A stretch of 64,000 nucleotides of DNA from Candidatus Parcubacteria bacterium. Lineage in GTDB: Bacteria; Patescibacteriota; Minisyncoccia; Minisyncoccales; JAGMAB01. The stretch lies in NCBI GenBank assembly GCA_023131055.1, contig JAGMAB010000001.1:1486-65485 (forward strand), read 5' to 3'. Positions 17,801 through 57,118 of this stretch are shown here, piece by piece. The notes beneath the pieces are model-generated. The model worked only from the letters and a program-made list of their open reading frames with translations, had not been told where the DNA came from and did not search any database. The stretch's first letter is position 1. Each line of letters begins with the position of its first letter. A program made the position numbers and the translations under genes.

Positions 17801-17830
17801 GAGGAAAAAGAATTTAAAGTAAAAACACCC

Positions 17831-18350: not shown

Positions 18351-18434
18351 TTGACCGGGTGTTTGAAATGGGGTTAAATAGGCATAGGTGGGGAATTGTG
18401 GAAAACTATGGGATAACTGCCTAAAACTGTGGAA
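18351..18434 (+). promoter_or_regulatory. dcw-cluster promoter (TTGACC-17-TTAAAT) with phased MraZ-box-like repeats
   Basis: GTGGGG (18388), GTGGAA (18398) and ATGGGA (18408) at 10-nt spacing, plus GTGGAA (18429). TGTGGAAAACTATG occurs twice. Confidence 0.5.
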
Positions 18435-18438
18435 AACT

Positions 18439-18870: not shown

Positions 18871-18873
18871 TTT

Positions 18874-20051: not shown

Positions 20052-21652
20052 TGGTAATGAAGAATTTAAGAACAAATATAATTTTTTGTATTTTTATTCT
20101 TTTTTCTTTTCTGCTTTTAAGCAGGCTTTTTTATGTTCAAATTATTCAGAAGGATTTTTACAAGGCATTGGCTCAAGGTTTGTATAATTCTGATACTCAA
20201 ACAGAAAGTAAAAGAGGAGAAATTTTTTTTAAGGACAATGAACCATTGGCTATTAATAAAAATTGGCCGTTAGTTTTCGCTTGTCCGCCAAAAGTTGTTG
20301 AAAAAGAAAAAACCGCCCGGATATTAAGCGAAAAGCTCTCTTTAGACAAAAATTTTGTTTTGGAAAAACTTAAAAAAGACAGCTTATATTCATTGCTAAA
20401 AGATAAATTAAATCAGGAGGAAGCAGAGGTTTTAAAAAACCTAAACCTGCCAGGTATTTATTCCACTGCCACGCAAGGCCGATATTATCCACAGGACTCT
20501 CTTGCGTCACAGACAATTGGATTTTTAGGAGCTGACAACAATGGACAATACGGCTTGGAAGAATATTATAATGATGTTTTAGAAAATTCCGACATTGTTT
20601 TAACATTGGATTATAAAGTTCAGTTTATGGCTGAAAAATTATTAAGTCAGGCAAAAGAAAATCTTGATATTGAAGCAGGGCAAATTATAGTAATAGAGCC
20701 GGTTTCCGGCAAAATAGTCGCTTTAGCTAATTTTCCTAATTTTAACCCTAATCAATATAATAAATACGCGCAGCAAGGAAACCTGAATATCTTTCAAAAT
20801 AGCAATACCCAAAAACTTTTTGAACCCGGCTCGGTTTTCAAGCCAATCACTTTTGCCGCCGCGCTAAACGAAGAAAAAATTACTCCTTTAACTACTTATA
20901 TTGATAAAGGAGTAGTGAAAATTGGCGGTTGGCCTATTTATAATTATGAGAAAAAAGTTTATCCCGGCGCAATAACCATGACAGAGGTCTTGGAAAAATC
21001 AATTAATACAGGAGCCGTATTTGTTGAAAAAAAACTTTCACATAATATGTTTCTTGATTATGTTGATAGATTTGGCATTTTTGAAGCGACTGGAATTGAT
21101 TTGAGTGAGACATATTCTGAAAATGAAGAATTTAAAAAGGGTTATGAAATAAATTTTGCCACTGCTTCTTTTGGCCAGGGAATTATGATGACCCCGATTC
21201 AACTAATTAGGGCTTACTGCGCTATTGCCAATGGCGGAGAATTAGTAAAACCGTATCTTGTGGAAGATGTTGGGGTCAGACCCCAACATTCCCAAGTTAT
21301 CTCTTCAAAAACTTCTCGCCAACTCACAACTATGTTAATCAGCGTAGTGGATAATGGTTTTGCCAAGACAGCCCAAGTTCCCGGCTATTATATCGCGGGT
21401 AAAACTGGAACCGCGCAAGTGGCATTTTCCGCTTTGGGAATTGACAAACGAGGCTATTCTGAAAAAACTATTCAGACATTTGTCGGCTGGGTTGGCGGCT
21501 TTAATCCTGATTTTTTAATTTTAGTAAAACTTGACAATCCAAAGACAAAAACTGCCGAGTATTCCGCGGTGCCTGTTTTCCACGACTTAGTTGAATACAT
21601 TATTCATTATTATCAAATTCCGCCTGACAGAGAACAGAATGAAACACCTTGA
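20051..21652 (+). CDS. ftsI: penicillin-binding protein 2/3 (transpeptidase, FtsI-like)
   Basis: N-terminal TM, then SVFK (SxxK), SIN (SxN) and KTGT motifs. Confidence 0.85.
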   Translation: MVMKNLRTNIIFCIFILFSFLLLSRLFYVQIIQKDFYKALAQGLYNSDTQTESKRGEIFFKDNEPLAINKNWPLVFACPPKVVEKEKTARILSEKLSLDKNFVLEKLKKDSLYSLLKDKLNQEEAEVLKNLNLPGIYSTATQGRYYPQDSLASQTIGFLGADNNGQYGLEEYYNDVLENSDIVLTLDYKVQFMAEKLLSQAKENLDIEAGQIIVIEPVSGKIVALANFPNFNPNQYNKYAQQGNLNIFQNSNTQKLFEPGSVFKPITFAAALNEEKITPLTTYIDKGVVKIGGWPIYNYEKKVYPGAITMTEVLEKSINTGAVFVEKKLSHNMFLDYVDRFGIFEATGIDLSETYSENEEFKKGYEINFATASFGQGIMMTPIQLIRAYCAIANGGELVKPYLVEDVGVRPQHSQVISSKTSRQLTTMLISVVDNGFAKTAQVPGYYIAGKTGTAQVAFSALGIDKRGYSEKTIQTFVGWVGGFNPDFLILVKLDNPKTKTAEYSAVPVFHDLVEYIIHYYQIPPDREQNETP

Positions 21653-36145: not shown

Positions 36146-37096
36146 ATGGGCAAACATGAAAGAAAATCAATTGAAGAAGCAGAAAAAATTATTGTAAAAA
36201 TTTTAAGTTCTAAAACTCTTAATGGTTTTGATAAAAGAAATCATTGGTTTAATCATGCTTTTTCTATAGCAAAAAGAATCAAAAAAGATTTCCCAAAAAT
36301 TACATTGGCTCGCCATCTAGGTAATAGCTATGATAACACAGGAGATATAATGATTATTTTTAATGGTAAAAAATTCTTTATTGAAATAAAGATGAGTGAT
36401 ACAAAATCAGGTATTGGAACTAAAGCTAATATTAGCCAAGATGCCCTTACAGAGAATTATCTTTTTACAAGAAATATAAAAAGTTGGAGTAAATTTCGTC
36501 AGGAAAAAAATCATGATAAGTGGGTTAATGATTTTTTGAATCAATTTACTAATTATCCACAGAATATTTTAAAAATTACTAATCCAGCAACGCAGAAGGA
36601 AGAAAAAGCAAGGTATTTAAGAAAATTAGCAAAAAAAAGAAATAAAAAAGCCAAGAGCATTCTTGACGATATCCAAAAAAAAGATAAAAAAGAAAAAATT
36701 GAATATTTAACCTATCTAAGCAGTCAAAAACAACAAAAGAAAATGATTAAAAGGTTTTTTATTTTGATTACATTAGGAATTCACAGAAAAGAAGAATTAG
36801 AAAATTTAATAAAGAAAGATGATTTTTTTCAAAAACTTAAAAACTTCTTTGTATATTACAGCAATTTTAATAAAGGTAAAATTGTTATCAGAAAAGAAGA
36901 TGCTGGAAAAAGAATTGAACAAATATTGAAAAAACATTCTGATTTTAAAATTATTTTTCCAGTAAAAGTAAGCCATTGTAAAATAGTTGGTGTAAAAGGC
37001 AAGAATTCTAAACAGTTATTACAAATAGTTTTTCACTGGAAAAATATTGCTCAAGGCATTAAAACTCCGTGTCTTAATATTTTTGACTTAGCTTAA
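36146..37096 (+). CDS. putative type II restriction endonuclease (PD-(D/E)XK-like)
   Basis: 316 aa with no recognisable family, but GDIMIIFNGKKFFIEIKMS fits D...ExK. Convergent with the methyltransferase gene, with overlapping stops. Confidence 0.45.
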   Translation: MGKHERKSIEEAEKIIVKILSSKTLNGFDKRNHWFNHAFSIAKRIKKDFPKITLARHLGNSYDNTGDIMIIFNGKKFFIEIKMSDTKSGIGTKANISQDALTENYLFTRNIKSWSKFRQEKNHDKWVNDFLNQFTNYPQNILKITNPATQKEEKARYLRKLAKKRNKKAKSILDDIQKKDKKEKIEYLTYLSSQKQQKKMIKRFFILITLGIHRKEELENLIKKDDFFQKLKNFFVYYSNFNKGKIVIRKEDAGKRIEQILKKHSDFKIIFPVKVSHCKIVGVKGKNSKQLLQIVFHWKNIAQGIKTPCLNIFDLA

Positions 37097-38931
37097 TTTA
37101 TATTAATCGGAAATAGTTTTCCCAACTCTGTCTTGGAAATTTGAGTATTTCCTGTGATATTGGATACGAAATTTAATTTTTCTTTTGAGGATAGTTGTTT
37201 AGCAACATCCCAAACAGTTAAATTATTTTTTAATGGATTATAAGCAAAATCCATTTTTATTTGGCTTTTTTTATCGGGAGGGAATATTACATTAACATGA
37301 TTTTCGGCAATAAACTTCATTCCGGAAGGGATAATAGCTGATTTTAATCTTGCCGACTTAACTGTTCCCGTGATTCTATTTGTTACGATTGCAGGTCCGA
37401 CATTAAAATTATTAGTCCTAACATACTGAGGTTTATCTTTTCTTGTAATTGGTATTTTTAACCCATCTAGGGTTATATTGTGCGCCCATATTAAAGAGAT
37501 GGCGCCTTTTGGGTTATGTGTAAGAATATCTCTATTTTGGTTCCACACCAATCTCCCTGTTTTAACTTCAAAGTTTAAATCATGTAAAGTCACTTTGCCC
37601 TTGAAAGCATTTTTCAGGTAGTTTGTATTTTCGCTAAAGATTAAAATACCATTTTTCTTAAATAAATAATCTCCTTTATTTTTACCTTTTTTAAGGATTA
37701 ACAACATTATTGATTGCTGGGCTCCATGAAATAATTTAGGATCTTTGATAACTTGCAAGTATTCAATATTAGAATTCTCAACAATAAACTTTCTTACTTT
37801 TGAGAAATAAGCTCCATTATTCATAGATGGAGGAACTACATACGCAAGGTACCCGCCTTTTTTAAGTAAATTTATTCCTTGGTGAATAAATAAACTAAAG
37901 ATATTTACACGACCATTTATTATATCGCCGAATTTCTGTCTTAATGTTTTTGATAGTGTAAATTCATAATAAGGCGGATTTCCAATCACAAAATCATATT
38001 TTCCATATTCTTTATTGAAAAGAGTGTTAGTAGTTTTTATGTTTGCCGTCGGAATTAATTCTTTAGCTATATCTACTAATTTTTTATCTATATCCCATGC
38101 CTCTAATCTGGGATTCTTAAAATATTCTTTCGCTGTAATTAAAAATTCCCCTGTGCCGCAAGCCGGATCTAAAACTCGTGGATTTTTAACAGTATTTGGT
38201 AATTTATTAAGCAATATTTTTCTTATAGACTTGGGTGTAAAATATTGACCGAGAGATTTTCTGTGCCCGATATCCGTTTCTCTCATATATTTAATAGTAG
38301 CTTCAGTAAATTCCTTGCTATCTTGGATTATATCTTGTAGTTCTTTGAAATTTCTAATTACACTAATGACTTTCCCTTGAATAATTAAATCTTTTGTAAA
38401 AATTGGCTTTAGGTTTGGATTGGCTGGTTGTAATCTAAATCTACTCTTTTCTTTGTAAATTTTCTTTAAGGTTACCTCGTTGTCGTTTATTAAGGCAACA
38501 ACTGTTTCGCCATTTTCTGCTGTTGGTTGTTTTCTAATTATTACAGTATCACCGTCAAAAATTCCTTCATCAATCATACTGTTTCCTTGAACCCTTAAAG
38601 CGTAATGTTTCCCTGATTTAGATAACTGATTTTTAGGCACTTCAATAGTTTCTGTATCTTCAATAGCTTCAATCGGCTGTCCGGCTGCAATAGTTCCTAA
38701 TATAGATATTTTTACTAAATCTGAAGATTTCTTTTTTTTATTTATTTCAATAACTCTTGATTGTGTTTTTAGATAACCTTTTTCTCTTAACGCTTCTATG
38801 TGTTGATGAATAGTTGATACCGAAGACAATCTAAAATGCCTCTTTATTTCTTCCAAAGAGGGAGCATAAGTATTTTCTTTAATATACTTAGTAATAAAAT
38901 CTAATATTTGTTTTTGTCTTTTTGTTAGCAT
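37093..38931 (-). CDS. LexA repressor (wHTH + S24 autopeptidase) fused to a gamma-class N6-adenine DNA methyltransferase
   Basis: Residues 1-205: LexA wHTH, AAG cleavage site (A83-G84), GNSM (S118), TLKK (K156). Residues 206-612: LDPACGTGEFL (motif I), GNPPY (motif IV), and a long target-recognition domain. Confidence 0.8.
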   Translation of the reverse strand: MLTKRQKQILDFITKYIKENTYAPSLEEIKRHFRLSSVSTIHQHIEALREKGYLKTQSRVIEINKKKKSSDLVKISILGTIAAGQPIEAIEDTETIEVPKNQLSKSGKHYALRVQGNSMIDEGIFDGDTVIIRKQPTAENGETVVALINDNEVTLKKIYKEKSRFRLQPANPNLKPIFTKDLIIQGKVISVIRNFKELQDIIQDSKEFTEATIKYMRETDIGHRKSLGQYFTPKSIRKILLNKLPNTVKNPRVLDPACGTGEFLITAKEYFKNPRLEAWDIDKKLVDIAKELIPTANIKTTNTLFNKEYGKYDFVIGNPPYYEFTLSKTLRQKFGDIINGRVNIFSLFIHQGINLLKKGGYLAYVVPPSMNNGAYFSKVRKFIVENSNIEYLQVIKDPKLFHGAQQSIMLLILKKGKNKGDYLFKKNGILIFSENTNYLKNAFKGKVTLHDLNFEVKTGRLVWNQNRDILTHNPKGAISLIWAHNITLDGLKIPITRKDKPQYVRTNNFNVGPAIVTNRITGTVKSARLKSAIIPSGMKFIAENHVNVIFPPDKKSQIKMDFAYNPLKNNLTVWDVAKQLSSKEKLNFVSNITGNTQISKTELGKLFPININ

Positions 38932-44325: not shown

Positions 44326-45444
44326 ATGAATGATGTAGAACTGAACATACTGAACATAAAGGAAAATGAAAAACCTACGGTAACAGTGTTGATTCCCGCT
44401 TACAATGAAGAAGAACATATAGCAGAAACTATTCAAAACATTAAAGAACAAAGCTATCCGAATATAATACAGATTTTGGTAGTTGATGACGCTTCAACCG
44501 ATAATACTAACAAGATAGCAAGAGAATACGGCGCAGAAGTTATTAGAACGCCTGAAAATTCAGGAACAAAAGCCCAAGCGCAGAATTTTGCTCTTCCTTA
44601 TTTAAAAGGAGAACTAACAATGACAATAGACGCTGATACGACATTAGACCCAAAAGCAACCGAAGATATAGTAAAGAAATTTATTGAAGAACAAGATATT
44701 GCTTCAGTATGCGGGTTTGTGGTGCCGGAGAGAAGAAAAAATTTCTGGGAATTAGGTAGGACAATACAATACCTTTACGGACTCTTTATGCGAAAGAAAA
44801 CACAGGAATATTTGGGCATACCGATTGTCTGTTCCGGCTGTTTCTCTACATTTAATACAAAGATTTTGCAAGAGTATGGATTCAAAGACAGAACAATGGT
44901 TGAAGACATGGACTTGACCTGGCAGTTTCTGACAGAAAAGAAAAAAGTGAGATTTTTACCGGATGTAGTATGTTTTCCAAAAGACCCACACAACTGGAAA
45001 ACATACAGAGGACAAGTGAGCAGATGGTTAAGGGGATTTTTTCAGTGTATGTCTATTTACAAAAAAGATGTTTGGAAAAACAAAAAATTGGCGTTCTTTC
45101 TTTATTGGTATTTACTGGAGGGATTAATAGGGGCTATATTTTATCCTTTATTAATCTGGACTTTGATATATCCTCCAAGCCAATATTTAGTGATAACAGA
45201 GCCAATATATTTAGTGATTCCATTGAAAGCTGTGATGCCATTGATGTTTCTGTCTTCTGTAGCAATAGTAACGATTTGTTCGCTTTACCAGGGAAGTAAA
45301 TTGAAAATAAAGAAAACAGAGGTCTTGAAAGGAATACCGTGTTATTTCGTTCTAATTTTGTTGGATTGCTTCATGTTTTTTGAAGCATTTGTGAATGAGT
45401 GGGTATTGAAAAGGAAATTGGAAAAATGGGAAAAAGGACATTAA
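44326..45444 (+). CDS. processive family-2 glycosyltransferase, membrane-embedded (PgaC/IcaA/NodC-like synthase)
   Basis: VLIPAYNEE, VVDDASTDNT, TIDADT, VEDMDLT and QVSRWLRG (QxxRW), plus C-terminal TM helices. Confidence 0.85.
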   Translation: MNDVELNILNIKENEKPTVTVLIPAYNEEEHIAETIQNIKEQSYPNIIQILVVDDASTDNTNKIAREYGAEVIRTPENSGTKAQAQNFALPYLKGELTMTIDADTTLDPKATEDIVKKFIEEQDIASVCGFVVPERRKNFWELGRTIQYLYGLFMRKKTQEYLGIPIVCSGCFSTFNTKILQEYGFKDRTMVEDMDLTWQFLTEKKKVRFLPDVVCFPKDPHNWKTYRGQVSRWLRGFFQCMSIYKKDVWKNKKLAFFLYWYLLEGLIGAIFYPLLIWTLIYPPSQYLVITEPIYLVIPLKAVMPLMFLSSVAIVTICSLYQGSKLKIKKTEVLKGIPCYFVLILLDCFMFFEAFVNEWVLKRKLEKWEKGH

Positions 45445-47324
45445 TAGGAATTGGTATAGTTGTGTTATTATGTGTTTTTTTCGGGCTTGGCATATTTGCC
45501 GAACCATACATAATGCACGACACAGAAGTGAATAAAGTAGAAGTGAATATAGATGATGTCAAAAGCATAGATAATGTCATAGAAAATGCCGTGGTTTTAG
45601 AGAAGCAATCAGAAACACCAGCGACGCCAGCGACGCCAGTAATGATACTCGGTCTTTCTAAGATTGAGTTGAGAACAAAAGACAAAGAATCTGTCGGGGT
45701 TCAAGTAGACAGAGTGATAAGAGACTATCTTTGGTACAATTCGGCGTTTGACGCCAGTGTTCCGGCAGATAGAATTCCGTATTCCTCTTCGCAACTCGTG
45801 TGTTATATGGAAGGCGCGAGAGTAATAGAAATGATGGAATGGGCAAATATGTCAGTTATTCCGCTAACACCGAGCATTGCGCTGAAGAAAGACGATGGTT
45901 ATTATTACGGCGCTGACGGACAGGGAAACTTTATTTTTCAGATATGTCCGAGCAAAACAGAATATCCGACCTGTGAATTTATCAACGAAAGTAATAATGA
46001 ATATATAGTAATGCGCGACACGCACGGATTCAACGCTGTTGCTGAACAAGCGTATCTCAATAAAGACAAAGTAGATTTGGTGATTGCCTGCATGGATATG
46101 CCGGACAAAGCAAAAGCCGCGTTGTATTTGGCGCAGAATGGAATTCAATGCTACGCGCCCTGCGACAGGTTTACCAACGATTTGATGAACTACAAAGAGA
46201 AATTCGGCATAGGAACAGAAATATTGGGCAGCGCGCCAATCAGAAAAACAAATTACGGCGCTGTTATAGGAGATCAGCCAGTAGTGATATCACTTAATGA
46301 ACCAATTATAGCCCAATACACTGACAGGATGTATCCAGATCAGTATTGCGATACACCGAGCAGATATTTCAGAGAACTGCAAAGAGTTTATAAAATAAAC
46401 CTTTCAGTTACAGAGGTTTATGCCAATATTGGAGAAACCTGTAATCTAGTAAAAGAAGCAAAAGAACAAAACGCAGAAGTTATAGGCGCAAGAATATTCA
46501 ATGAAACTGATTACCTGCCGCTTAAAAACTGGTTGGAAGAAAACAAAAACCACAGGGTTATTTTGTTTCATTCTGCGGCATACGAGTTTGGCATCGAGCT
46601 ATTCAGAGCATATCCAGGGCAAACAAGTTTTGGGGATATTAACCCAAAATTTGTTGGTGATAACTTTGAACCCAAGAAAAACATATCCGCATTGGTGAGT
46701 TTCACTTTTGATGACAGCAATCCAAACCACCTGGAGAAAATTGCTCCTTTTTTGGAACAATATGATATGAAAGCAACGAGATACTATGTTACAGGCGTTT
46801 CCTGGACTAATTTCACTGAATGTAAAATCCTGCAGGACCAGTACAATTGGGAAATAGGCGGCCATACAAGAACTCATCCAGACCTGACAAATATCACACT
46901 GGAACAAGTAAAACAAGAAATTTGTGGAGGTAAAAGTGATTTTATTGCTAACGGTATTGCTGTAAAGAGCTTTGCGCCGCCATACACCGAAATAAACGCA
47001 GATACAATGAATATTGTCAAAGAGTGCTACGAGTCCTGCCGCAATGACTGGGGGATTAATTATCCTCCCTACGAACCATATCGTATTAGGATGCTTAGCT
47101 CGTTGGATAATATAGATAGGCTAAAAATCTCAGAGATTTCCGACAAGCTAGACGAGGCAATAGAAAACAATGGCTGGATAGTATTTTACAGCCATAGAGT
47201 AGATAATACAGGAAACCCGTATTGCACAGACGAACAGTTTTTCAAAGAACTTCTGAATCTAATCAGCAAAAAACCAGAGATTGAAGTAGTGACTGTTTCT
47301 GAAGGATTAGAATGGCGCTGGTAG
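45399..47324 (+). CDS. membrane-anchored protein with C-terminal NodB-type polysaccharide deacetylase domain (PgaB/IcaB-like)
   Basis: N-terminal TM, ~400-aa unassigned middle region, then FTFDDSNPNH and GGHTRTHPD motifs. ATG 45426 is an alternative start. Overlaps the end of the GT2 gene. Confidence 0.75.
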   Translation: MGIEKEIGKMGKRTLIGIGIVVLLCVFFGLGIFAEPYIMHDTEVNKVEVNIDDVKSIDNVIENAVVLEKQSETPATPATPVMILGLSKIELRTKDKESVGVQVDRVIRDYLWYNSAFDASVPADRIPYSSSQLVCYMEGARVIEMMEWANMSVIPLTPSIALKKDDGYYYGADGQGNFIFQICPSKTEYPTCEFINESNNEYIVMRDTHGFNAVAEQAYLNKDKVDLVIACMDMPDKAKAALYLAQNGIQCYAPCDRFTNDLMNYKEKFGIGTEILGSAPIRKTNYGAVIGDQPVVISLNEPIIAQYTDRMYPDQYCDTPSRYFRELQRVYKINLSVTEVYANIGETCNLVKEAKEQNAEVIGARIFNETDYLPLKNWLEENKNHRVILFHSAAYEFGIELFRAYPGQTSFGDINPKFVGDNFEPKKNISALVSFTFDDSNPNHLEKIAPFLEQYDMKATRYYVTGVSWTNFTECKILQDQYNWEIGGHTRTHPDLTNITLEQVKQEICGGKSDFIANGIAVKSFAPPYTEINADTMNIVKECYESCRNDWGINYPPYEPYRIRMLSSLDNIDRLKISEISDKLDEAIENNGWIVFYSHRVDNTGNPYCTDEQFFKELLNLISKKPEIEVVTVSEGLEWRW

Positions 47325-47363: not shown

Positions 47364-47972
47364 ATGAAAAAAAGATTGGGAGAAATCTTGAATGTGACAT
47401 ACGTGCCATGCTGCCCAAGCTGCAGTGATTTGATACACTATCTCATCAGGCACCCGGTATTTGCTATAGTAGTTATCTGCCTTATTGTATTTCCAATAGG
47501 AGGCATTGAATACTTTATCTGCAACGATGTGAATTTGGGAACAGATGAAAAGGCAGAACAATACTACGAAGCAATTTTGCAGGTACACCAAGATATAGGA
47601 TTCAACGAGAACGAATATCCACCGTCAGGATTGACGCTTGAGCAGGCAAAAGAAATTCCGTGTATAAACAACGATACAGATGCAGAATATTGGTTATCTG
47701 AAGAATACAATAAGGATATAGGGAGAGTGTATTACTATATCCTTCTGGCGATTTACCACAGATGGCTGCATCCAGAAGACGCTAACCATACGGCGATGGA
47801 AATACTGAACAATCCGGAGATTATCGGAAATTTCACGTTAGACAACCGCTCATATAACTACGCGACAGTGGCGTATTTCCACAATAGGAGTGTGGTTAAC
47901 GCACATTTACTAACAAATAGTACATTACCAACAGACGAACTGGAAAGAGTAAAAGCTTTGCTACCAAAGTAA
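47364..47972 (+). CDS. hypothetical membrane-anchored protein
   Basis: 202 aa with one TM (FAIVVICLIVFPIGGI). Its translation-initiation region is nearly identical to that of the GT2 gene. Confidence 0.5.
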   Translation: MKKRLGEILNVTYVPCCPSCSDLIHYLIRHPVFAIVVICLIVFPIGGIEYFICNDVNLGTDEKAEQYYEAILQVHQDIGFNENEYPPSGLTLEQAKEIPCINNDTDAEYWLSEEYNKDIGRVYYYILLAIYHRWLHPEDANHTAMEILNNPEIIGNFTLDNRSYNYATVAYFHNRSVVNAHLLTNSTLPTDELERVKALLPK

Positions 47973-48027: not shown

Positions 48028-48066
48028 GCTGATTCTGGAGGTTTTTCCAGAATCGGCATTTTTTTT
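48028..48066 (+). terminator. intrinsic terminator
   Basis: GCTGATTCTGG-AGGTTTTT-CCAGAATCGGC followed by T8. Confidence 0.6.
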
Positions 48067-48073: not shown

Positions 48074-48139
48074 TTGACATAAATAGAAAATAAAGATACT
48101 ATGATAGGGACTTGACAAGGTTTTATGGTTGTGTAAACT
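48074..48139 (+). promoter_or_regulatory. tandem promoters (TTGACA-17-TACTAT and TTGACAAGGTTT-16-TAAACT)
   Basis: TTGACA at 48074 and 48112, with a third TTGACA at 48168. About 340 nt upstream of the first TasA-like gene. Confidence 0.45.
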
Positions 48140-48479: not shown

Positions 48480-49574
48480 ATGAACAAAAAAATTCTAATT
48501 AGTTTAAGCGTAATCGGAGTTGTTGCTGCTATTGTCATTGGTGGAACTGCGGCTTATTTCAGCGACACTGAAACAAGTAAAGATAATCTTTTTGTCGCCG
48601 GCACCATAGATATTTTTGTTGATGGTGATAATTTTGATTGGGAAGGACACGCTACATTAGAAGATATGAAACCTTGTTATACTGACTACATTAATTTCAC
48701 GATTTATAATAACCTAAGCGACCCAAATCCAGTTAATGTTTGGAAGCACTTGATAATCACTTATGAAGAAGACGGTGCAACTTCTGAACCTGAGTGCACA
48801 GAGCAAGGTGGAGAATGGATTAAGGGAGATCCAGGGCAATGTTATTGGAATGGTCATGTTAACAACAATAACATTTCCAGCATTATAGATTATGATCTTA
48901 TAGTAGAAGTGTATGACAGCTGCGGTAGATTGATTTGGTGGCAGACCATTTATGACAAAGAAGTTACTGTAGCAGAAATTGCCTGCAAAGAAATTTATTT
49001 AGGAATGATTCCAGTTGACGGATATATGAAAGTAATTCAGAGTTATCATATGCAGGATCCTAATTTTTCCACAAACTGGGCGCAAGGCGATATAATGGCT
49101 TTTGATCTTGAAATTACAGGTATTCAGCTTCGCGGAGAAGCTTGGTTAGATTTCAAACAGGCAACAAAGAGTCCAGAAGAGTATTGGAAAGTTCAAAATC
49201 CAGGAAACCCTGCTGGTACTTTGACTTACATAGTAAAGCATCCAGAATTTGACTATGACTTCAACGCCAGTGGACTTCAAACTGACACAGAATACAGCTT
49301 GATTTACTATGCTGACCCATGGCCAGGAAACAACCCTGGTGCTTTACTTGGAACAGCAACAACTGATGGAAGCGGTAATATTGCTATGTCAAGTTCTGTT
49401 GAACTGAATATGAATCTTCCAGGTCCTGGCGATCTTAATCATCCAGATGGCGCTAAAGTTTGGTTGGTTCCATCCAGCGACTATGATGCAGGTACTAATG
49501 AGTTGACATATTGGAATCCTGGTAACTACTTGTTTGAAATTGGTTTGATTTACTACTACGATACTGATTTCTAA
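48480..49574 (+). CDS. secreted TasA/camelysin-like protein 1 (SipW-type signal)
   Basis: MNKKILISLSVIGVVAAIVIGGTAAYFSDTETSKDNLFVAGTIDI, compared with B. subtilis TasA GGGTWAAFND..FASGTLDL. ATG 48480 preferred over the TTG at 48402. Confidence 0.7.
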   Translation: MNKKILISLSVIGVVAAIVIGGTAAYFSDTETSKDNLFVAGTIDIFVDGDNFDWEGHATLEDMKPCYTDYINFTIYNNLSDPNPVNVWKHLIITYEEDGATSEPECTEQGGEWIKGDPGQCYWNGHVNNNNISSIIDYDLIVEVYDSCGRLIWWQTIYDKEVTVAEIACKEIYLGMIPVDGYMKVIQSYHMQDPNFSTNWAQGDIMAFDLEITGIQLRGEAWLDFKQATKSPEEYWKVQNPGNPAGTLTYIVKHPEFDYDFNASGLQTDTEYSLIYYADPWPGNNPGALLGTATTDGSGNIAMSSSVELNMNLPGPGDLNHPDGAKVWLVPSSDYDAGTNELTYWNPGNYLFEIGLIYYYDTDF

Positions 49575-49688
49575 GATTGAAATCTTTTCGGTTGTCTCAA
49601 TCTTGTGAATTGGGACAACCTATAAAGGTTTTGAAATAAAAAAACCAAAGGTCGGAAAAGATAAATAACTAACAAAGAACAAAAAATT

Positions 49689-51521
49689 ATGAACAAAAAA
49701 ATATTAATTAGTTTAGCGCTTATTGGCGTTGTTGGCGTTATTGCTACTGGCGCGACTGTTTCTTACTTTACTGACACTGAATCCAGTGTTGGCAATGTTT
49801 TCACTGCTGGAAGCATTGACTTGAAGATTGACAATCACGCTTGGTTTAATGGCGGGTATATGGAGGAATTTAGTTGGGAGCTTGATGACTTGACAGACCA
49901 ACTTTTCTTCAACTACACTGACTTAAAGCCAGGTGATTGGGAGGAAGACACTATCAGCATCCGTGTTGATAATAATCCTGCATGGATATGTGGAGAGATT
50001 ACAATTACCAACAATGACGATATGACTTGTACAGAGCCGGAAATGGATGATGACCCAACATGTGATGAACCTGACGCAGATATTTGGGATGGTGACTTAG
50101 CTCAGGAATTAGCATTTATTTATTGGGTAGATGATGGAGACAATGTTCTTGAAAGTGATGAGTATTTTTATGGACCAATATCTCCTGGGGCTTTATTGCC
50201 AGATGGCTCAATTAGATTCCCAATTGCTGATGTGAACTATTCCGTAGCTGGATATGATCCAGGTACAGGATTAGGACTTCCTATTGTTGGTCTTGAGACC
50301 TATTATATTGCCAAAGCATTTTGTTTTGGTGATATAGATATTGTTCCTGTTGTCCAAGACGGATATAGTGATCAGATGAACCCTGGTAGTCCGCAAGGCC
50401 CTGGATTTACTTGTAATGGCGCCTTAGTTAATAACGCTTCTCAGTCAGATAGTTTAACAGGTGATATTTCCTTTACCGCAGTGCAGTACAGAAATAATAC
50501 TGATTATGTTTGTGTTATAGTGCCAGAGTGTGAGGACGATGAGGATTGTGATGACGAAAATGCGTGCACTTTGGATGTCTGCGACGAGGATAACCTTTGT
50601 CAAAACATTTGTTTAGTGGACGATCCTTGTGACGATGGAAATGATCACACTGTTAATGACAAATGTACTCAAGTCGGAGAAGATTGTCTTTGTAAAGGCA
50701 CACTTGTTGAATGTATAAGTAATGAGGAGTGCAATGACTACAACGAATGTACTTTGGATATCTGCGACGAAAACGGCGTTTGCCAAAACACTTGTTTAGT
50801 AGGTCAATCTTGTGATGATGGAGAGCATTACACCATTAATGATGAATGTACTCAAGTTGGAGAGGATTGCTTTTGTGAAGGCGAACCTGTTGACTGTATA
50901 GACGCTGGAGATTGCAATGACAATGATCCATGCACAATTGATACTTGTGAAAATAATGTCTGTGTCTACACTCCTATAGTTTGTAATGACCAAGATCCAT
51001 GTACAACTGATGCCTGTGTTGACGGAACCTGTGTGTACACTCCTATAGTTTGTAATGATGGGGATCCATGTACAACTGATGCCTGTGTTGGCGGAGAATG
51101 CGTGTACACTCCTATAGTTTGTAATGATGGGGATCCATGTACAACTGATGCCTGTGTTGACGGAACCTGTGTCTACACTCCTATAGTTTGTGATGACCAG
51201 AATCCTTGTACAACTGACGCTTGTGTTGGCGGAGTCTGTATATACACTCCTATTTGTGAGGGTACTGACATAGAGTGCGGTTGCACAAGTTGCGAAAACT
51301 GTAACGACCAGGATGGCTGGGTTGATGTAGGCGGCACATACGCATGCTGTCAAGGCGATTACATGCTGTGTACTTGCCAAAATCAAGAATATATAGATTA
51401 CTCTTGTCAAGGCACTTCTTGTGTTTCTGCAACAACAAATTGGCGCACAGTTGGGACAGACTGTTCTACATGTTATCCATATTGTTGTGATGACGCGCAG
51501 TGCGTGCCCTGCAATTATTAA
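49689..51521 (+). CDS. secreted TasA/camelysin-like protein 2 with Cys-rich repeat C-terminal region
   Basis: MNKKILISLALIGVVGVIATGATVSYFTDTESSVGNVFTAGSIDL and DLKPGDWEE, then about 300 aa of CxDxDPCTxDxC-type repeats. Confidence 0.75.
   Translation: MNKKILISLALIGVVGVIATGATVSYFTDTESSVGNVFTAGSIDLKIDNHAWFNGGYMEEFSWELDDLTDQLFFNYTDLKPGDWEEDTISIRVDNNPAWICGEITITNNDDMTCTEPEMDDDPTCDEPDADIWDGDLAQELAFIYWVDDGDNVLESDEYFYGPISPGALLPDGSIRFPIADVNYSVAGYDPGTGLGLPIVGLETYYIAKAFCFGDIDIVPVVQDGYSDQMNPGSPQGPGFTCNGALVNNASQSDSLTGDISFTAVQYRNNTDYVCVIVPECEDDEDCDDENACTLDVCDEDNLCQNICLVDDPCDDGNDHTVNDKCTQVGEDCLCKGTLVECISNEECNDYNECTLDICDENGVCQNTCLVGQSCDDGEHYTINDECTQVGEDCFCEGEPVDCIDAGDCNDNDPCTIDTCENNVCVYTPIVCNDQDPCTTDACVDGTCVYTPIVCNDGDPCTTDACVGGECVYTPIVCNDGDPCTTDACVDGTCVYTPIVCDDQNPCTTDACVGGVCIYTPICEGTDIECGCTSCENCNDQDGWVDVGGTYACCQGDYMLCTCQNQEYIDYSCQGTSCVSATTNWRTVGTDCSTCYPYCCDDAQCVPCNY
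50913..51262 (+). repeat. tandem 69-nt (23-aa) coding repeats
   Basis: The unit TACACTCCTATAGTTTGTAATGA... restarts at 50967, 51036, 51105, 51174 and 51243 and encodes YTPIVCNDxDPCTTDACVxGxCV. Confidence 0.9.
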
Positions 51522-51625
51522 CAGTCAAGGAATTAGATAGATTTGAATTCTTTTTGATTGCCTCATAACTCTCCTTGTGGTAAAAATAGGGGCAATCTAT
51601 AAAGGATTTAAGAAGTGTTTTGAGT

Positions 51626-52129
51626 ATGAAACCATTGAAAATAATTTATTACATTTTTGTTGGACTGATTGCCGCGGTCGCGCTTTTGCTGATTTTCTCA
51701 ATTTTTCCAATTTCAGGAAATTTCAAACCAATGATAGTCCAGTCCGGTTCAATGGAACCGGCAATTAAAATGGGAAGCGTAGTAGTAGTTAAACCAGCAG
51801 ATAATTATAAAATTGGCGATGTAATTACATTTGGCGAGGTTAGTAAAACTAAAACGCCGACTACTCATCGGGTTCACGACATAAAAGTAAATGAAGGAAA
51901 ACCATATTATATTACCAAAGGAGATGCTAATAACGCGCCTGACCAGAAAGAAATTGCTAAAAAAGATATTGTTGGCAAAGTTTTATTCAGTATTCCTTAT
52001 CTTGGATACGGCGTGGATTTCGCTAAAAAACCGATCGGTTTTGCTTTAATTATTATTATCCCGGCAATGCTCGTTATTGGCGATGAAATAAAGAAAATTT
52101 TTAGAGAAATCAAAAAGAAAAAACAATGA
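51626..52129 (+). CDS. sipW: signal peptidase I, SipW/archaeal-ER type (S26B)
   Basis: N-terminal TM, VQSGSMEPAIKMGSVVVV and TTHRV motifs, C-terminal TM. 4-nt overlap with the next gene. Confidence 0.8.
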   Translation: MKPLKIIYYIFVGLIAAVALLLIFSIFPISGNFKPMIVQSGSMEPAIKMGSVVVVKPADNYKIGDVITFGEVSKTKTPTTHRVHDIKVNEGKPYYITKGDANNAPDQKEIAKKDIVGKVLFSIPYLGYGVDFAKKPIGFALIIIIPAMLVIGDEIKKIFREIKKKKQ

Positions 52130-53868
52130 GACAATCTATTATAAAAATTATATCATTATTGTTAATTATCGGTCTTAACTGGACCGGGATTTCAGCTGTT
52201 CACAGTACTTTGGCTTATTTTAGTGATAATGAAGATTCTAATGGTAATATCTATCAAGCCGGCACCTTAGATTTTTGTTTAAATTCTTCAAGTTTAAATA
52301 AGTTTATAGGACTCACCGAAAAAGTTTTATTAGGTTCTGTCTTAACAAATAATGGTAGCCTCGGTTTTCAGTACACAGTGACGGCTGAAAAAATTTCTGG
52401 AAGTGATGATTTTTGCAATGCCCTCAAATTAGAAGCTGAATTGAATGGAATTGAAAAACATGACGATGCTCTTATGTCTTTTGATATTCCGGCCTCAACC
52501 ATGCTTGGAAGTTGGAGTTTTGAGATTAAATTACCGGTTTACGCAGCGAATATTTCTCATGGAGAAACCTGCGAGGTTGACCTTGTATTTAAAGGTTGGC
52601 AGACCGATATGCCGGTTTACGGAACAGCGGGCTTTTTTGACGAAGAGAGAATTCATATTAATCTCACCAGCAGGATGGTTGTTTTAAATGAATTCTTACC
52701 AAATCCTAACGGGTTAGTTCCTGATTATGGATTTGATTTTGGTGAAGATAGCGACAGTAAACCCCAAGGAGAATGGGTAGAGTTATACAACAATAGTAAT
52801 TCAAACCACAACCTGGCTGGCTGGTATATTTGGGATGCCAGCAATGATAATTCAAACAAGGTCTTCATTACTGATTCAAATACAATCCCTGGAACTACAA
52901 CTATCCCGGCTAATGGCTGGCTTGTAGTGTATATGAATAAAGCAGTGTTTGATAACACCGGTGATACCGTTAAGTTATTTGATGGTGCTGACACTTTAAT
53001 TGATTCATATACTTATATGGCGGATAATGATTATTGTGAAATTGAACCAACACCCGGAGATGAAAATACCACCAATACAACCGGTAGTTGCGGGGGTGTT
53101 CCACCAAATAAATCATATGCTCGTATTCCTGATGGTATTGGTTACTGGGTAGATCCTATTCCTACGCCCGGCAGGATGAATAAGTTAATTGAAGAAGAAC
53201 CTATTGCTGAGGAAATCTTATCTACAGAAGAAACTCCAGCCATTGAAGAAGAGGCAGTTGCCACCGAAGAAGAACCGCCTGTGGTGGAAGAGCTACCTAT
53301 GGAAGAAGAAACTCCTTCAATCAAAGAACCTGCGCCAGAAGAACCAGCTGACGACGAAGTTCCAGTTGAGGAAATTCCAGTTAAAGAAGTCCCAGTGGTT
53401 GAAGAAGAAAAACAACCAGTAGTAGAAGAAGAATTGCCTGTTGAAGAAACTGTTCCTGAACAACCAGTAATTATTGAAGAACCAGTTCCAGTTATGGAAG
53501 GCGAGGATGGAGAAACAATTTTTGATGAAGTGTTTGATAATATAGAAAATACAATAAAAGAAGCGATAGAAGAAGTAATGCCTATTGAAGAAGAACTGCC
53601 TATTGAAGAATCCGAATCTGAAATAACCGAAGGAATGATTGAGGTCAAACCTCAATCAATTCCAGAACTGGAACAACCAGTGGTAGAACCAGTGATTGAA
53701 AAGCCAGTAATTATTGATGAACCAGTAGTTGAAGAAGTAATAGAAGAAATAATTGAACTATTGGTTGAACCAGTAATTGAACCATCGATTGAAGAACAGC
53801 CAGTTATTATTCCTGAAGATAATCCTTCTAAACCAATTGATGATTTAGGAGAAGAAACCAATGAATAA
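52126..53868 (+). CDS. secreted TasA-like protein 3 fused to a lamin-tail domain and an acidic E/P/V-rich tail
   Basis: Signal and STLAYFSDNEDSNGNIYQAGTLDF, lamin-tail-like VVLNEFLPNPNG...EWVELYNNSN..LAGWYIWD, then a ~230-aa EExP(V/I) low-complexity tail. Confidence 0.7.
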   Translation: MRQSIIKIISLLLIIGLNWTGISAVHSTLAYFSDNEDSNGNIYQAGTLDFCLNSSSLNKFIGLTEKVLLGSVLTNNGSLGFQYTVTAEKISGSDDFCNALKLEAELNGIEKHDDALMSFDIPASTMLGSWSFEIKLPVYAANISHGETCEVDLVFKGWQTDMPVYGTAGFFDEERIHINLTSRMVVLNEFLPNPNGLVPDYGFDFGEDSDSKPQGEWVELYNNSNSNHNLAGWYIWDASNDNSNKVFITDSNTIPGTTTIPANGWLVVYMNKAVFDNTGDTVKLFDGADTLIDSYTYMADNDYCEIEPTPGDENTTNTTGSCGGVPPNKSYARIPDGIGYWVDPIPTPGRMNKLIEEEPIAEEILSTEETPAIEEEAVATEEEPPVVEELPMEEETPSIKEPAPEEPADDEVPVEEIPVKEVPVVEEEKQPVVEEELPVEETVPEQPVIIEEPVPVMEGEDGETIFDEVFDNIENTIKEAIEEVMPIEEELPIEESESEITEGMIEVKPQSIPELEQPVVEPVIEKPVIIDEPVVEEVIEEIIELLVEPVIEPSIEEQPVIIPEDNPSKPIDDLGEETNE

Positions 53869-55288
53869 ATTTGCAAAAACAATTTTAATAGTTTCCATTG
53901 CCATTTTTGGCGCGGGATTATTAGTGGTAGATTCTACTCAAGCTCAAGTTGTTGATGAGTTAGTTGTAGAATTTGAAAAAACACCTTTATTTGACGAGGC
54001 AGATTTTAAGCCGGGCGACAGTATTACCAGATGGGTAAAAGTAACCAATAACAGCGGTCAAACTCAACCAATTGCTACTGAAGCAATAAACTGGCCTGGT
54101 TTTCCTAATTCAAGCAATGTGCCAAATGATGATTTGTCCCGGGCTTTGTTAATCGTTATTAAAAAACAAGGAGGTTCTGATTTATACGGCGGTTCAAGTT
54201 CAACCGGTTCTAAATCTCTTTATAATTTTTATCAAGATAGTGATACATACCAAGAAATTTATCTATCTGAAGTTAATAATACACAAACAACTCAATATGA
54301 TTTTACGATTTCATTTCCATCAGAAAAAGAGAATGAATGGCAGGAAAAAACAACTGGTTTTGATATTATAATCGGTTTTCAAGGAACCGAAGGCGGTCCA
54401 ACACCTCCCAGTCCTCCTAGTCCGCCCGGTGGTGGTGGTGGTGGTGGTGGACTGCCACCAGGTCTAATTATTCAATATGAAAACACTGTTTGTGTCAGCA
54501 GCACTGATGCTATTATAACTTGGCTGACAAGTTATAACTCAACAAGCAGAGTGATTTATGACATTGAACCAGATAAATTTGTTTTATCCAGTTCCCCAAA
54601 TTATGGCTATGCTGATTCTACTGTTGAAGAAGATACTCCGGCTAATACCAGCGGAGTTACAGGCCATACAGTAGAAATTACCGGTCTTTCACCTAATACA
54701 GATTATTATTTTCGCTGTATTTCTCACGCTTCACCCCCAACAATCGGCACAGAACATAGTTTCACTACTTTAGCTATGGGAGAAAGAGATCCTTGTTGTG
54801 AAGGAACAACCGAAGAAGAAGGTCCTATTGCCCTTGGTGAGCAGGAAGAGGAGGAGGAAGAGGAAATTCTAATTCCTGAAATAATAGGCGAAGAAGAGGA
54901 GTTTCCTGCTTTTGGTGAGCAGGAAGAAGAGGAGGAAGAAATTCTCACTCCTGAAATAATAGGTGAAGAAGGTATTACTGAAGGAGAAGAGGAAATCACA
55001 GAAGAAGACACTTCACGCTTTTTAGCAGCAATTGTCAACTTTTTTACTTTGGAAAATTACTGTTGGCTCTTAACCCTTATTGGAATTATTTTGGCTTGTC
55101 TATTTGCCTTATCTAAAAATAAGAAGAAGTACTATTTGGGTTTAATTTTTGGTGTAATTGTATTAATTATTTTAGTTGTTTTATTAAAGTGTCTATTTTT
55201 AATAATTCCAATAGTTATATTAATTGTTTCTTTTCTTATCACATTATTAAAAAAGAAAAAACAAGCCCAAGAAACAAGTTGGAGTTAG
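53861..55288 (+). CDS. surface protein: TasA-fold-like N-domain, Pro/Gly linker, FN3-like domain, poly-Glu repeats, C-terminal TM anchor
   Basis: Signal peptide, FKPGDSITRWVKVTNNSG ... NEWQEKTTGFDIIIGFQG, PTPPSPPSPPGGGGGGG, FN3-like ITWLTSY..TDYYFRC, duplicated GEQEEEEEE..PEIIGEE, and three terminal TM helices. Confidence 0.6.
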   Translation: MNKFAKTILIVSIAIFGAGLLVVDSTQAQVVDELVVEFEKTPLFDEADFKPGDSITRWVKVTNNSGQTQPIATEAINWPGFPNSSNVPNDDLSRALLIVIKKQGGSDLYGGSSSTGSKSLYNFYQDSDTYQEIYLSEVNNTQTTQYDFTISFPSEKENEWQEKTTGFDIIIGFQGTEGGPTPPSPPSPPGGGGGGGGLPPGLIIQYENTVCVSSTDAIITWLTSYNSTSRVIYDIEPDKFVLSSSPNYGYADSTVEEDTPANTSGVTGHTVEITGLSPNTDYYFRCISHASPPTIGTEHSFTTLAMGERDPCCEGTTEEEGPIALGEQEEEEEEEILIPEIIGEEEEFPAFGEQEEEEEEILTPEIIGEEGITEGEEEITEEDTSRFLAAIVNFFTLENYCWLLTLIGIILACLFALSKNKKKYYLGLIFGVIVLIILVVLLKCLFLIIPIVILIVSFLITLLKKKKQAQETSWS

Positions 55289-55358
55289 AATAATTAACAA
55301 ATTATATAGGTGTTCTTAAAAACGGAAACATCCAACTATGACAGTATAGTAGTAAAAA

Positions 55359-55406
55359 CAGGGGATAATCCCCTGTTTTTTTGTTGAAATGCGAAATGAT
55401 TGAAAA
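55359..55406 (+). repeat. copy 2 of the 48-nt intergenic repeat (terminator hairpin + conserved 26-mer)
   Basis: CAGGGGATAATCCCCTGTTTTTTTGTTGAAATGCGAAATGATTGAAAA. Compare with 5027-5074. Confidence 0.85.
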
Positions 55407-55432
55407 CCAGTTAAAAAAGAAGTAAAATAAAA

Positions 55433-55693: not shown

Positions 55694-57118
55694 ATGTTAA
55701 AAAAACCTAAAAAAACAATTAAAAAGCGCAAAATAATTAAGAGGGTTAAAACAAAAGCAAAAGCAAGAGCAAAGAAGGAGACAGACAAGGTAAAAAAAAC
55801 CAAAATCAAAGTAATTGGCATTGGCGGCGGCGGAAATTCAATTGTCTCGGAAATTGCCTCGCGGATGAAAAAAGCGAATTTTGTTGTTGCCAACACTGAT
55901 ATTCAGGCGTTAAAATCATCAAGCAGGCGCGCCGCGCATTTTCAGTTTGGCTTAAATCTTACCCAAGGACTTGGAACCGGAATGAATACGGAATTAGGAA
56001 TGGCTGCTGCCCAGGATGAAAAAGACAGAATAAAAAAAATGTTGGAAAATCAGGATTTAGTAATTTTGGTTGTTTCTCTGGGAGGAGGAACAGGGTCTGG
56101 CGCGGCTCCTATATTCGCTAAAATCTGCAAAGACCTGGGCAATTTATGCTTAGGTATTTTTACTTTGCCTTTTGAATTTGAAGGAGAAAAGAAAATGGAA
56201 ATCGCTAAAAACAGTTTGGCAAAACTAAAGTATCAATTAAACGCTTTTTCAGTTATTCCCAATGAAAGAATTTTCAGAATTATTGATGAAAAAACTCCGC
56301 TAAAAATGGCTCTCTCGGCAATAAATAAAAGTTTAACCGAAAGTTTGGAAGGCCTGATTGAAACAATTTACGAACCCGGCCTAATCAATATTGACTTTGC
56401 CGACTTAAAAACAATTCTTAGCGGACAGGGAAAATTGGCTTATCTAAATACCATAGAAATCCAGAAAAAAAGAGACACTGCCAAAGAAGCGATTGAAAAA
56501 GTCCTGAATTCTCCGTTATATCCTTACAGCATTAAAGGAGCTAAAGGAATTTTATTAAACATATCAGGACCAAAAGACCTTGGACTTTTTGAAGTGAGCA
56601 AAATTTCAAAGACAATTTCCGACCTGTTAAATAAAGAAGCAAAAATTATTTTTGGAGTTTCTCATAATAAAAAAAATTCCAATGTTATTAAAACAACTTT
56701 GCTGGCTACCGGCATTCCTTCACAGCGTCTTTCATTAAAAAAGCCTGCTGTACAGAAGAAAGTATTGCCAAAGAAAACATTGCCCAAGAAAAAAAGAAAA
56801 AGAAAAGTTTCCAAGCCAAGCAAAATAACCAAACCAATTAAAAAAATAAAAAAAACCAAGCCAATTAAACCAATCAAGCCGGTTAAACCGGTTCAAACCC
56901 CAAAAAATCTTCTACCAAAAGTTATTGATGCTTCGGCAGGCTCAGCACCAATAATTTCAATTCATCCTGAAGAAAAACATTTGGAAGAAAAAAATTCTGA
57001 AAAAGTCAGAAAAAACGCTCTTCAAATAAAAAAGGAAGTGGAGGAAACCGAGAAAAAAATGAACGAACAGGAAAAAATCTGGGAAACTCCAACTTTCTTG
57101 CGAAGAAAACATGAGTAA
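55694..57118 (+). CDS. ftsZ: cell division protein FtsZ with basic N- and C-terminal extensions
   Basis: VIGIGGGGNSIV, GGGTGSGAAP and NIDFADLK motifs. ~35-aa K/R-rich N-terminus and ~130-aa K/P-rich C-terminal tail. Confidence 0.9.
   Translation: MLKKPKKTIKKRKIIKRVKTKAKARAKKETDKVKKTKIKVIGIGGGGNSIVSEIASRMKKANFVVANTDIQALKSSSRRAAHFQFGLNLTQGLGTGMNTELGMAAAQDEKDRIKKMLENQDLVILVVSLGGGTGSGAAPIFAKICKDLGNLCLGIFTLPFEFEGEKKMEIAKNSLAKLKYQLNAFSVIPNERIFRIIDEKTPLKMALSAINKSLTESLEGLIETIYEPGLINIDFADLKTILSGQGKLAYLNTIEIQKKRDTAKEAIEKVLNSPLYPYSIKGAKGILLNISGPKDLGLFEVSKISKTISDLLNKEAKIIFGVSHNKKNSNVIKTTLLATGIPSQRLSLKKPAVQKKVLPKKTLPKKKRKRKVSKPSKITKPIKKIKKTKPIKPIKPVKPVQTPKNLLPKVIDASAGSAPIISIHPEEKHLEEKNSEKVRKNALQIKKEVEETEKKMNEQEKIWETPTFLRRKHE

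Follow-up and report, generated by a model that had tools for sequence, protein, structure and literature searches.

Five co-directional genes of a Candidatus Parcubacteria bacterium, at positions 48480-55288 of a 64,000-nucleotide stretch of contig JAGMAB010000001.1 (GenBank assembly GCA_023131055.1; hereafter the window), encode four proteins with signal peptides (A, B, D and E) and a signal peptidase, in the order A-B-peptidase-D-E. We consider it probable, at roughly 0.6, that their products make up a cell-anchored fibre of the TasA superfamily that is built by donor-strand exchange. Three arm-bearing proteins next to one arm-less, membrane-tethered homologue are what one would expect of a polymer that grows by strand exchange and has a fixed end: gene A encodes the putative major fibre subunit, D a putative tip or initiator subunit and E a putative membrane anchor that would accept a strand and terminate the fibre. 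The locus represents a form that the TasA-superfamily fibre operon takes in Patescibacteria, and not a new kind of system. A preliminary description of the locus had read it as a fibre or adhesion apparatus; the five open reading frames (ORFs) on the forward strand and the peptide strings it quoted, VQSGSMEP of the peptidase included, were all found, and sequence and predicted structure support its interpretation, fibre formation and adhesion being what we infer from them.

Three proteins with a SipW-type signal and a donor-like arm

The SipW-cognate signature reported for three of the ORFs is recovered by TIGR04088 ('cognate_SipW', curated cutoff 19), which matches A, B and D with 36.1, 26.7 and 20.9 bits, respectively. 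In Bacillus subtilis TasA the donor strand comprises residues 28-38, the first after SipW cleavage (A-F-N-D-I-K...); residues F29, I32 and F39 are buried in neighbouring subunits, and TapA gives the first strand (PMC9674648). Alignment to the TasA site, where GGGTWA precedes AFND, places the likely mature N-termini at YFSD in A, YFTD in B and YFSD in D. Nothing else in the A, B and D families is as strongly conserved as the arm motif, T.AYFSDTE.S..N.F.AG.[IL]D; F27, D29, T30 and E31 are invariant within the A family. In the AlphaFold2 (AF2) monomer model of A, which has a predicted local distance difference test (pLDDT) score of 83.7, residues 42-216 and 218-353 are confident and residues 15-37 score below 50; this arm is unstructured and not packed in the fold, in keeping with the free donor strand that had been anticipated.

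All four proteins had been described as TasA/camelysin-like. For A this holds at the level of Pfam, its match to Peptidase_M73 (PF12389, TasA/camelysin) exceeding the gathering score of 22.5 (30.1 bits); the same family is precomputed on relatives of A. B (17.9-18.2 bits) and D (16.8 bits, or 19.2 for the N-domain alone) remain under that score, and in E the likeness emerges only from trimmed profile-profile comparison and Foldseek. The N-domains of A, B, D and E orthologues were cut from 78 related loci, and the four alignments, which have zero ORFs in common, were compared by hhalign: the N-domain of B matched that of A with 100% probability (E 1e-51), and that of D matched it with 98.7%. 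Foldseek pairs the A model with the TasA structures 5of2 (probability 1.00, TM(target) score 0.48) and 5of1 (probability 0.99). An LKPGD-like strand, said to be retained in several of the proteins, does not extend to D, where the motif is absent.

The other decorations that had been listed, namely Cys-rich repeats in B, a lamin-tail domain in D, an FN3-like domain in E and Glu-rich tails in D and E, are all present. The jelly roll of A is followed by a second beta-sandwich, for which no Pfam family was found (49131-49538); it also occurs alone or in other architectures, and many profile matches cover only positions ~216-357 of A. D carries a lamin-tail domain (LTD) at 60.2 bits (gathering score 34.3) behind its short TasA-like domain, an orthologue of D (locus L003) has precomputed PF12389 and LTD matches, and a transmembrane scan detected no membrane anchor in D. 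B appears from its sequence to be an accessory TasA-like paralogue and an optional one. Its Cys-rich repeats are of the Dicty_CTDC type (44 bits, 6 stretches), and 59 of its 64 cysteines lie beyond residue 270. Only 9 of 41 related cassettes have a further TasA-like gene in the place between A and the peptidase gene, and an orthologue of the Cys-rich form, nearly complete in length, lies upstream of A in one Parcubacteria metagenome-assembled genome (MAG; locus L022). A 204-aa antisense ORF within the Cys-rich repeat region (50796-51410, reverse strand) is most likely a by-product of repetitive, codon-biased sequence, not a gene.

An arm-less, membrane-anchored relative

Neither PF12389 (at E<=0.1) nor TIGR04088 matched E or its 52 relatives, and full-length profile-profile comparison of E with the A family was insignificant (3.3% probability). 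When the comparison was trimmed to the N-domains, E matched D with 98.4% probability (E 1e-14, 116 columns) and A with 97.0% (E 1e-10). The N-domain of E is, as judged from these alignments, homologous to those of D and A, and E is a TasA-like protein of a special kind. The match to D starts at E residue 32 (D-E-L-V-V-E-F), which is aligned to G-T-L-D-F of D, the strand right after the arm. The signal peptide of E is ordinary, with a T-Q-A site (family consensus A-x-A, Ala28 invariant), and the first core strand begins only ~3 residues behind that site; the donor arm is absent from the E-family consensus.

In the AF2 model of E a confident beta domain (34-173, pLDDT >90) is joined by a Pro/Gly linker to the FN3-like domain, behind which come a disordered, Glu-rich spacer and helices at 385-474. 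Against the TasA fibre 8aur, Foldseek gives a probability of 1.00 (E 1e-5, TM(target) score 0.38), and the list of matches also holds many two-domain Ig/FN3 structures owing to the FN3 domain. Together with the equally probable match of A to 5of2 and with the profile matches, the two checks suggested earlier, for TasA/camelysin and SipW-cognate similarity in profile and for similarity in structure, both came out positive. The FN3-like domain is detected by Pur_ac_phosph_N (PF16656) on residues 213-303 (38.6 bits, gathering score 30) and in 52/52 E relatives, which are annotated merely as 'fibronectin type III domain-containing protein' (Minisyncoccales, Parcubacteria, Nealsonbacteria). The C-terminal membrane anchor is indeed there, as about three helices rather than the one first described: the hydrophobic segments 397-418 and 431-449 and the clusters of lysines fit ~three transmembrane helices with the N-terminus outside. 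Two of the 52 relatives match the LPXTG Gram_pos_anchor model, which is consistent with an anchoring role, and some lineages may use sortase-type anchoring instead of a membrane tail.

The signal peptidase

The 169-aa peptidase belongs, as its motif had suggested, to the archaeal/endoplasmic reticulum (ER)-type signal peptidases I (S26B), scoring 125 bits against TIGR02228 (cutoff 51.85), and a transmembrane scan places helices at both of its ends. Aligned with human SEC11A (7p2p, E 3e-12), its SGSMEP (Ser44), HRV (His83) and KGD (Asp102) motifs coincide with the catalytic residues of that enzyme, and the Ser, His and Asp are at least 90% conserved among 63 cassette peptidases. Its score against the Bacillus SipW equivalog NF046067, 111 bits, lies below the cutoff of 190; the enzyme would be SipW-like in its role and not an orthologue by the NCBI criterion.

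Conservation and origin of the cassette

Full-length relatives of A share 45-85% identity with it, and the few that are named appear at NCBI as 'TasA family protein' or 'SipW-dependent-type signal peptide-containing protein' (Ca. Pacebacteria, Parcubacteria). An exhaustive search with the A profile returned 6287, 2217 and 396 clusters at 50% identity for E<=1e-3, E<=1e-10 and E<=1e-30, respectively. Relatives of A are encoded in 436 stretches (one genome per species), the best of them in Ca. Nealsonbacteria (81%) and the others mostly in Patescibacteria (Nealson-, Parcu-, Paceibacterota, Moran-, Woese-, Campbell-, Woyke-, Portnoybacteria and WWE3). Thirty-four loci were informative, having a two-domain A and at least 5.5 kb downstream. 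The order A-(extra TasA paralogue)-SipW-D-E is kept in 22 of these, nearly all from Patescibacteria; A-SipW-D occurs in 3, A-SipW...E in 5 and A-SipW only in 3. The genes that flank the cassette vary between genomes. In the closest relative, Ca. Nealsonbacteria CSMAG_2411 (L001), three N_methyl (type IV pilin-like) genes lie 2.5-5 kb downstream of the cassette (19242-21089), which makes the two appendage systems neighbours there; they are not so in this window.

That the locus might be foreign and untypical of the organism, brought in by mis-assembly of Firmicute or archaeal DNA or acquired horizontally only very recently, is suggested by the archaeal/ER type of the peptidase and by archaeal, Chloroflexota or Bacillota labels on some related loci, and is essentially refuted by an even G+C of ~0.35 through the window, by flanks of bacterial housekeeping genes (ABC-F, BipA and DnaX upstream; FtsZ, thioredoxin reductase, enolase, GpmA and GAPDH downstream), by Patescibacteria MAGs being the best relatives of A, of E and of the whole cassette, and by the Chloroflexota and Bacillota loci being ordered SipW-A-b, without D and E. 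Contamination by a Firmicute contig, raised earlier as a possible flaw, is excluded on the same grounds.

Because some loci carry archaeal labels, spread of the cassette across domains to DPANN archaea was considered; it was rejected as unsupported. A 40-kb contig labelled 'Nanoarchaeia' (L042, DASVHF010000072.1) encodes bacterial rpoB, rpoC and YceG beside an A-SipW-...-E-like cassette (region 1-19029), which makes its archaeal label doubtful, and most of the other archaeal-labelled matches lie on contigs of only 2-8 kb; in some third-party assemblies the taxon labels cannot be relied on. The E-like gene of this contig (11318-12307) has RTX calcium-binding repeats in place of the FN3 stalk.

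A model for fibre assembly and its alternatives

Family membership, the catalytic residues of the peptidase, the presence or absence of the arm, the homology and topology of E and the conservation of the cassette are established; from them we infer cleavage sites, polymerisation, subunit order and a role of the putative fibre in host attachment. A, B and D would be exported by Sec, and the S26B peptidase of the locus would cut just before Y-F-x-D and so free the arms. Each arm, as the counterpart of the TasA donor strand, would then slot into the groove that the jelly roll of the following subunit offers. A would form the shaft, because it is the most conserved of the proteins, has two domains, is encoded by the first gene and may be raised in stoichiometry by a hairpin behind that gene (see below). 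D, with its arm, small jelly roll, LTD and acidic tail, would donate a strand; as it is unanchored, it would initiate the fibre or sit on its distal end as a cap, in the way of TapA or of TafC of the haloarchaeal Tafi pili. B would be an optional minor subunit that displays its Cys-rich repeats. E has a jelly roll and no arm and can thus accept a strand and not donate one; it would take the last arm, stop elongation and fasten the fibre to the membrane through its FN3/acidic-spacer stalk, in the manner of TafF or PapH.

Several observations weigh against a fibre built in this way. The PF12389 match in A spans profile positions 4-73 only, that is, the signal, the arm and the first strands. The Foldseek matches to TasA are moderate (TM scores of 0.38-0.48, E 1e-5 to 5e-4) and stand among many generic beta-sandwich matches; the TM scores are moderate because the A and E models are multidomain. 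Sequence searches of the PDB with A, with the A-family profile and with a Bacillota relative retrieved no TasA/camelysin chain, so that the link to solved TasA comes through Pfam, NCBIfam and Foldseek. The C-terminal extra domain of A has no known TasA counterpart and could hinder packing, and the middle one of the TasA donor hydrophobics F29/I32/F39 is a Thr here. Strand exchange between subunits is itself read from sequence and single-chain predictions. Finally, the cassette is not universal; a supplementary table of Kuroda et al. lists sipW in only one of three MAGs of archaeon-parasitising Paceibacteria. In that work (Kuroda et al. 2024), the sole sipW (K13280) among the three MAGs is PMX.50_00004, and PMX.50_00003, the adjacent gene number, is among the five most expressed signal-peptide genes and described as having a 'galactose-binding domain fold'. 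As a possible counterpart of gene A it is a lead only.

A different outcome would be that A, B and D polymerise into released matrix fibres, as in B. subtilis biofilms, and that E is an unrelated or co-regulated membrane adhesin. TasA itself is a matrix fibre (PMC9674648), genes for an exopolysaccharide-type GT2 synthase and a polysaccharide deacetylase lie just upstream of the operon, and 6 of the 34 loci have no E after SipW-D or SipW. Yet the N-domain of E is homologous to the subunit jelly roll and lacks specifically the arm; its gene overlaps D by 8 nt and follows right after SipW-D in 22 of the 34 loci, 5 more keeping an E-like gene after SipW without a recognisable D; some E relatives have LPXTG anchors; and the exopolysaccharide genes are not conserved beside the cassette. 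We regard released fibres as unlikely.

It is similarly improbable, in our estimate, that the proteins do not polymerise at all and are surface or secreted proteins that share a peptidase, their jelly rolls carrying adhesin domains (LTD, Cys-rich, FN3) or being camelysin-like proteases. PF12389 is formally a peptidase family, each protein bears a different putative binding domain, the AF2 monomers of A and E fold confidently without a partner, and Kuroda et al. read the highly expressed protein adjacent to sipW simply by its fold. Against this, no metalloprotease motif was noticed by eye among the invariant columns of the family, and the arm is the most conserved part of A, B and D, which is unexpected for a segment that has no function after cleavage. 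All TasA-superfamily members solved to date are donor-strand filaments, and three arm-bearing proteins with one arm-less anchored homologue are the pattern of a strand-exchange polymer. The anchored fibre remains the reading that we prefer.

Operon structure and neighbouring genes

The region 48.07-55.39 kb looks like one operon on a Nealsonbacteria-like chromosome of the Paceibacteria/Parcubacteria type (Table 1). Terminators on both sides of genes A-E indicate a single operon, and two promoter-like sites directly 3' of the strong upstream terminator mark its probable start; the consensus scan that found these hexamers was overall not above shuffle expectation. The peptidase gene and D overlap by 4 nt and D and E by 8 nt, which suggests translational coupling. 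Right behind gene A stands a hairpin that folds better than expected (z = -4.7; 0/200 shuffles fold equally well) and that may act as an attenuator or transcript stabiliser, raising the stoichiometry of A to the downstream products. The terminator after E lies in a segment (55285-55430) with a folding z of -3.7. Both this terminator and the hairpin were missed by a simple terminator scan and seen by folding.

Table 1. Features of the operon, with positions in the window and residue numbers of the encoded proteins
Feature	Residues	Position	Strand	Description
Upstream terminator		48028-48057		Strong, 13-bp stem; closes upstream gene (terminator scan)
Two promoter-like sites		48074..48139	+	TTGACA-17-TACTAT and TTGACA-16-TAAACT (consensus scan)
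Gene A		48480-49574	+	364 aa; putative major subunit
A, signal peptide	1-25			SipW-type; predicted cleavage between GGTAA and YFSD
A, donor-arm motif	26-41	48555-48602	+	YFSDTETSKDNLFVAG
A, jelly roll	42-216	48603-49127	+	TasA-like
A, second beta-sandwich	218-353	49131-49538	+	No Pfam family
RNA hairpin		49590-49620	+	No T-run; right behind gene A; fold -29.2 kcal/mol
Gene B		49689-51521	+	610 aa; accessory, probably optional
B, signal peptide				SipW-type; predicted cleavage between TVS and YFTD
B, jelly roll	~1-270			
B, repeat region	271-610	50499-51518	+	Cys-rich
Peptidase gene		51620-52129	+	169 aa; SipW-type
Peptidase, Ser44	44	51749-51751	+	Catalytic
Peptidase, His83	83	51866-51868	+	Catalytic
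Peptidase, Asp102	102	51923-51925	+	Catalytic
Gene D		52126-53868	+	580 aa; putative tip or initiator
D, signal peptide				SipW-type; predicted cleavage between TLA and YFSD; then donor arm
D, TasA-like domain	~47-165			Short
D, lamin-tail domain	207-297	52744-53016	+	LTD, PF00932
D, tail	350-580	53173-53865	+	Glu/Pro/Val/Ile-rich, 31% Glu
Gene E		53861-55288	+	475 aa; putative terminator and anchor
E, TasA-like domain	32-177	53954-54391	+	No donor arm; followed by Pro/Gly linker
E, FN3-like domain	204-302	54470-54766	+	
E, linker	312-382			Glu-rich, 46% Glu
E, membrane tail	385-474	55013-55282	+	~three transmembrane helices
Intrinsic terminator		55355-55386	+	Canonical; 11-bp G+C-rich stem, then U-run; closes operon

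About 1 kb upstream of the fibre operon lies the exopolysaccharide-type pair (44326-47324, forward strand), in which a PgaC/IcaA-like GT2 synthase gene (372 aa) overlaps that of a 641-aa protein with a C-terminal polysaccharide deacetylase domain; L001 has ribosomal L10/L12 genes upstream of the cassette instead. The upstream 202-aa membrane protein (47364-47972) was considered as a peptidase accessory like TafG of Tafi and rejected: it matches no family, its gene lies on the far side of a terminator from the operon, and its upstream position is not kept among relatives. Farther away, an ORF of 612 aa on the reverse strand (37093-38931) combines a LexA DNA-binding domain and Peptidase_S24 (LexA-like autoprotease) with an N6 DNA methylase/Eco57I-type methyltransferase, an unusual repressor-methylase fusion. 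FtsZ, downstream (55694-57118, forward strand, 474 aa), has a Lys/Pro-rich C-terminal extension of ~130 residues and a Lys-rich N-terminal leader.

Comparison with known systems

With tapA-sipW-tasA of B. subtilis (5OF1/5OF2 monomer, 8AUR fibre) the operon shares a dedicated S26B peptidase encoded within it, TIGR04088 substrates, the mature N-terminus x-F-x-D that forms the donor strand in TasA, the jelly roll as core, and a donor arm on an accessory protein, which is TapA there and D (and B where present) here. The order of genes differs (A-B-SipW-D-E here), as do the extra C-terminal beta-sandwich of the major subunit, the arm-less membrane-anchored paralogue E, the LTD and Cys-rich accessories, the peptidase that scores below the Bacillus SipW equivalog cutoff and the organism, an ultra-small, probably host-dependent Patescibacterium and not a biofilm-forming Firmicute. 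D shares with TapA only the N-terminal donor-like arm, a functional feature; the TapA family was not listed in Pfam and NCBIfam scans of B and D, and no direct comparison with the TapA sequence or with 6HQC was made.

In overall organisation (tip, shaft, arm-less anchor and peptidase) the operon is nearer to haloarchaeal Tafi (TafA/TafC/TafD/TafE/TafF/TafG) than to tapA-sipW-tasA. The model of Tafi, drawn from AlphaFold models, comprises a tip (TafC), an adapter (TafE), a core subunit (TafA), an anchor (TafF) and a peptidase (TafD) (PMC11821415, PMC12337348), and the parts list is the same here: major subunit, minor or adapter subunit, tip with a binding domain, peptidase and anchor. Assembly from tip to shaft to anchor through strand donation has likewise been proposed for it. 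The N-domain of TafF is pilin-like, its signal peptide is not of the pilin type and its C-terminus has three transmembrane helices (PMC11821415); E resembles TafF in its subunit-like N-domain, its differing signal peptide and its C-terminal helices, an architectural match and not a family assignment. The two systems differ in that Tafi is archaeal, uses Tat signals where the present proteins have Sec/SipW-type ones, and displays laminin-G where these have LTD, FN3 and Cys repeats; the DUF5305 accessory (TafG) and the regulator TafB were not seen here.

Loci of the TasA superfamily commonly encode major, minor and tip subunits, a TIGR02228 peptidase and anchors (AbpX preprint, bioRxiv 10.64898/2026.01.04.697558). 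The archaeal bundling pili of AbpA (PMC9245690) and the AbpX fibrils (same preprint) are TasA-superfamily jelly rolls joined by chaperone-free donor-strand complementation, and as in the present operon their loci hold an adjacent TIGR02228 peptidase and minor and tip subunits. AbpX-linked peptidases have ten transmembrane helices, whereas the enzyme described here has two. In the AbpX account, the anchors of bacterial loci are SLH or LPXTG proteins that are predicted to be incorporated in the polymer, in place of which we find a multi-pass membrane tail. The principle of PapH in chaperone-usher pili, by which an accepting, non-donating subunit ends the polymer at its cell-proximal end, offers an analogy only: there is no homology, and the present system has no chaperone, usher or outer membrane.

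Implications

The earlier view that such an apparatus had not been characterised in this kind of organism was too strong, given that Patescibacteria are among the phyla already listed as having readily identifiable PF12389 homologues (Wang et al. 2022, PMC9245690) and that NCBI uses the name 'TasA family protein'. We found no paper that ties SipW or TasA to a Patescibacteria locus, architecture or function. Tafi of haloarchaea have been proposed to be donor-strand pili that are anchored in the membrane and need no chaperone; for Bacteria we found no such pilus described.

Patescibacteria make up a large share of bacterial diversity. To our knowledge, all cultivated Patescibacteria live attached to other microbes, and we know of no attachment structures other than type IV pili that have been analysed in them so far. 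One might speculate, at odds clearly below even, that A-SipW-D-E builds a membrane-anchored, chaperone-free donor-strand pilus that serves as a host-attachment organelle of Paceibacteria-type Patescibacteria beside type IV pili, the lamin-tail domain of D (and the Cys-rich repeats of B-type subunits where present) setting which host surface is bound and E acting as terminator and anchor. Papers on cultured archaeon-parasitising Paceibacteria go no further than genes for pili and 'extracellular substances' at the contact site, which they leave unexplained (PMC10936435, PMC12281837). The cassette is a conserved and easily recognised candidate for a second surface appendage in Patescibacteria and for this contact-site material. 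An arm-less, tethered paralogue encoded beside the subunits would show how chaperone-free strand-exchange fibres terminate and are anchored, which is still open for TasA. If no fibre forms, the genes would still serve as a useful set of markers for secreted proteins of a bacterial lineage that rely on an archaeal-type signal peptidase.

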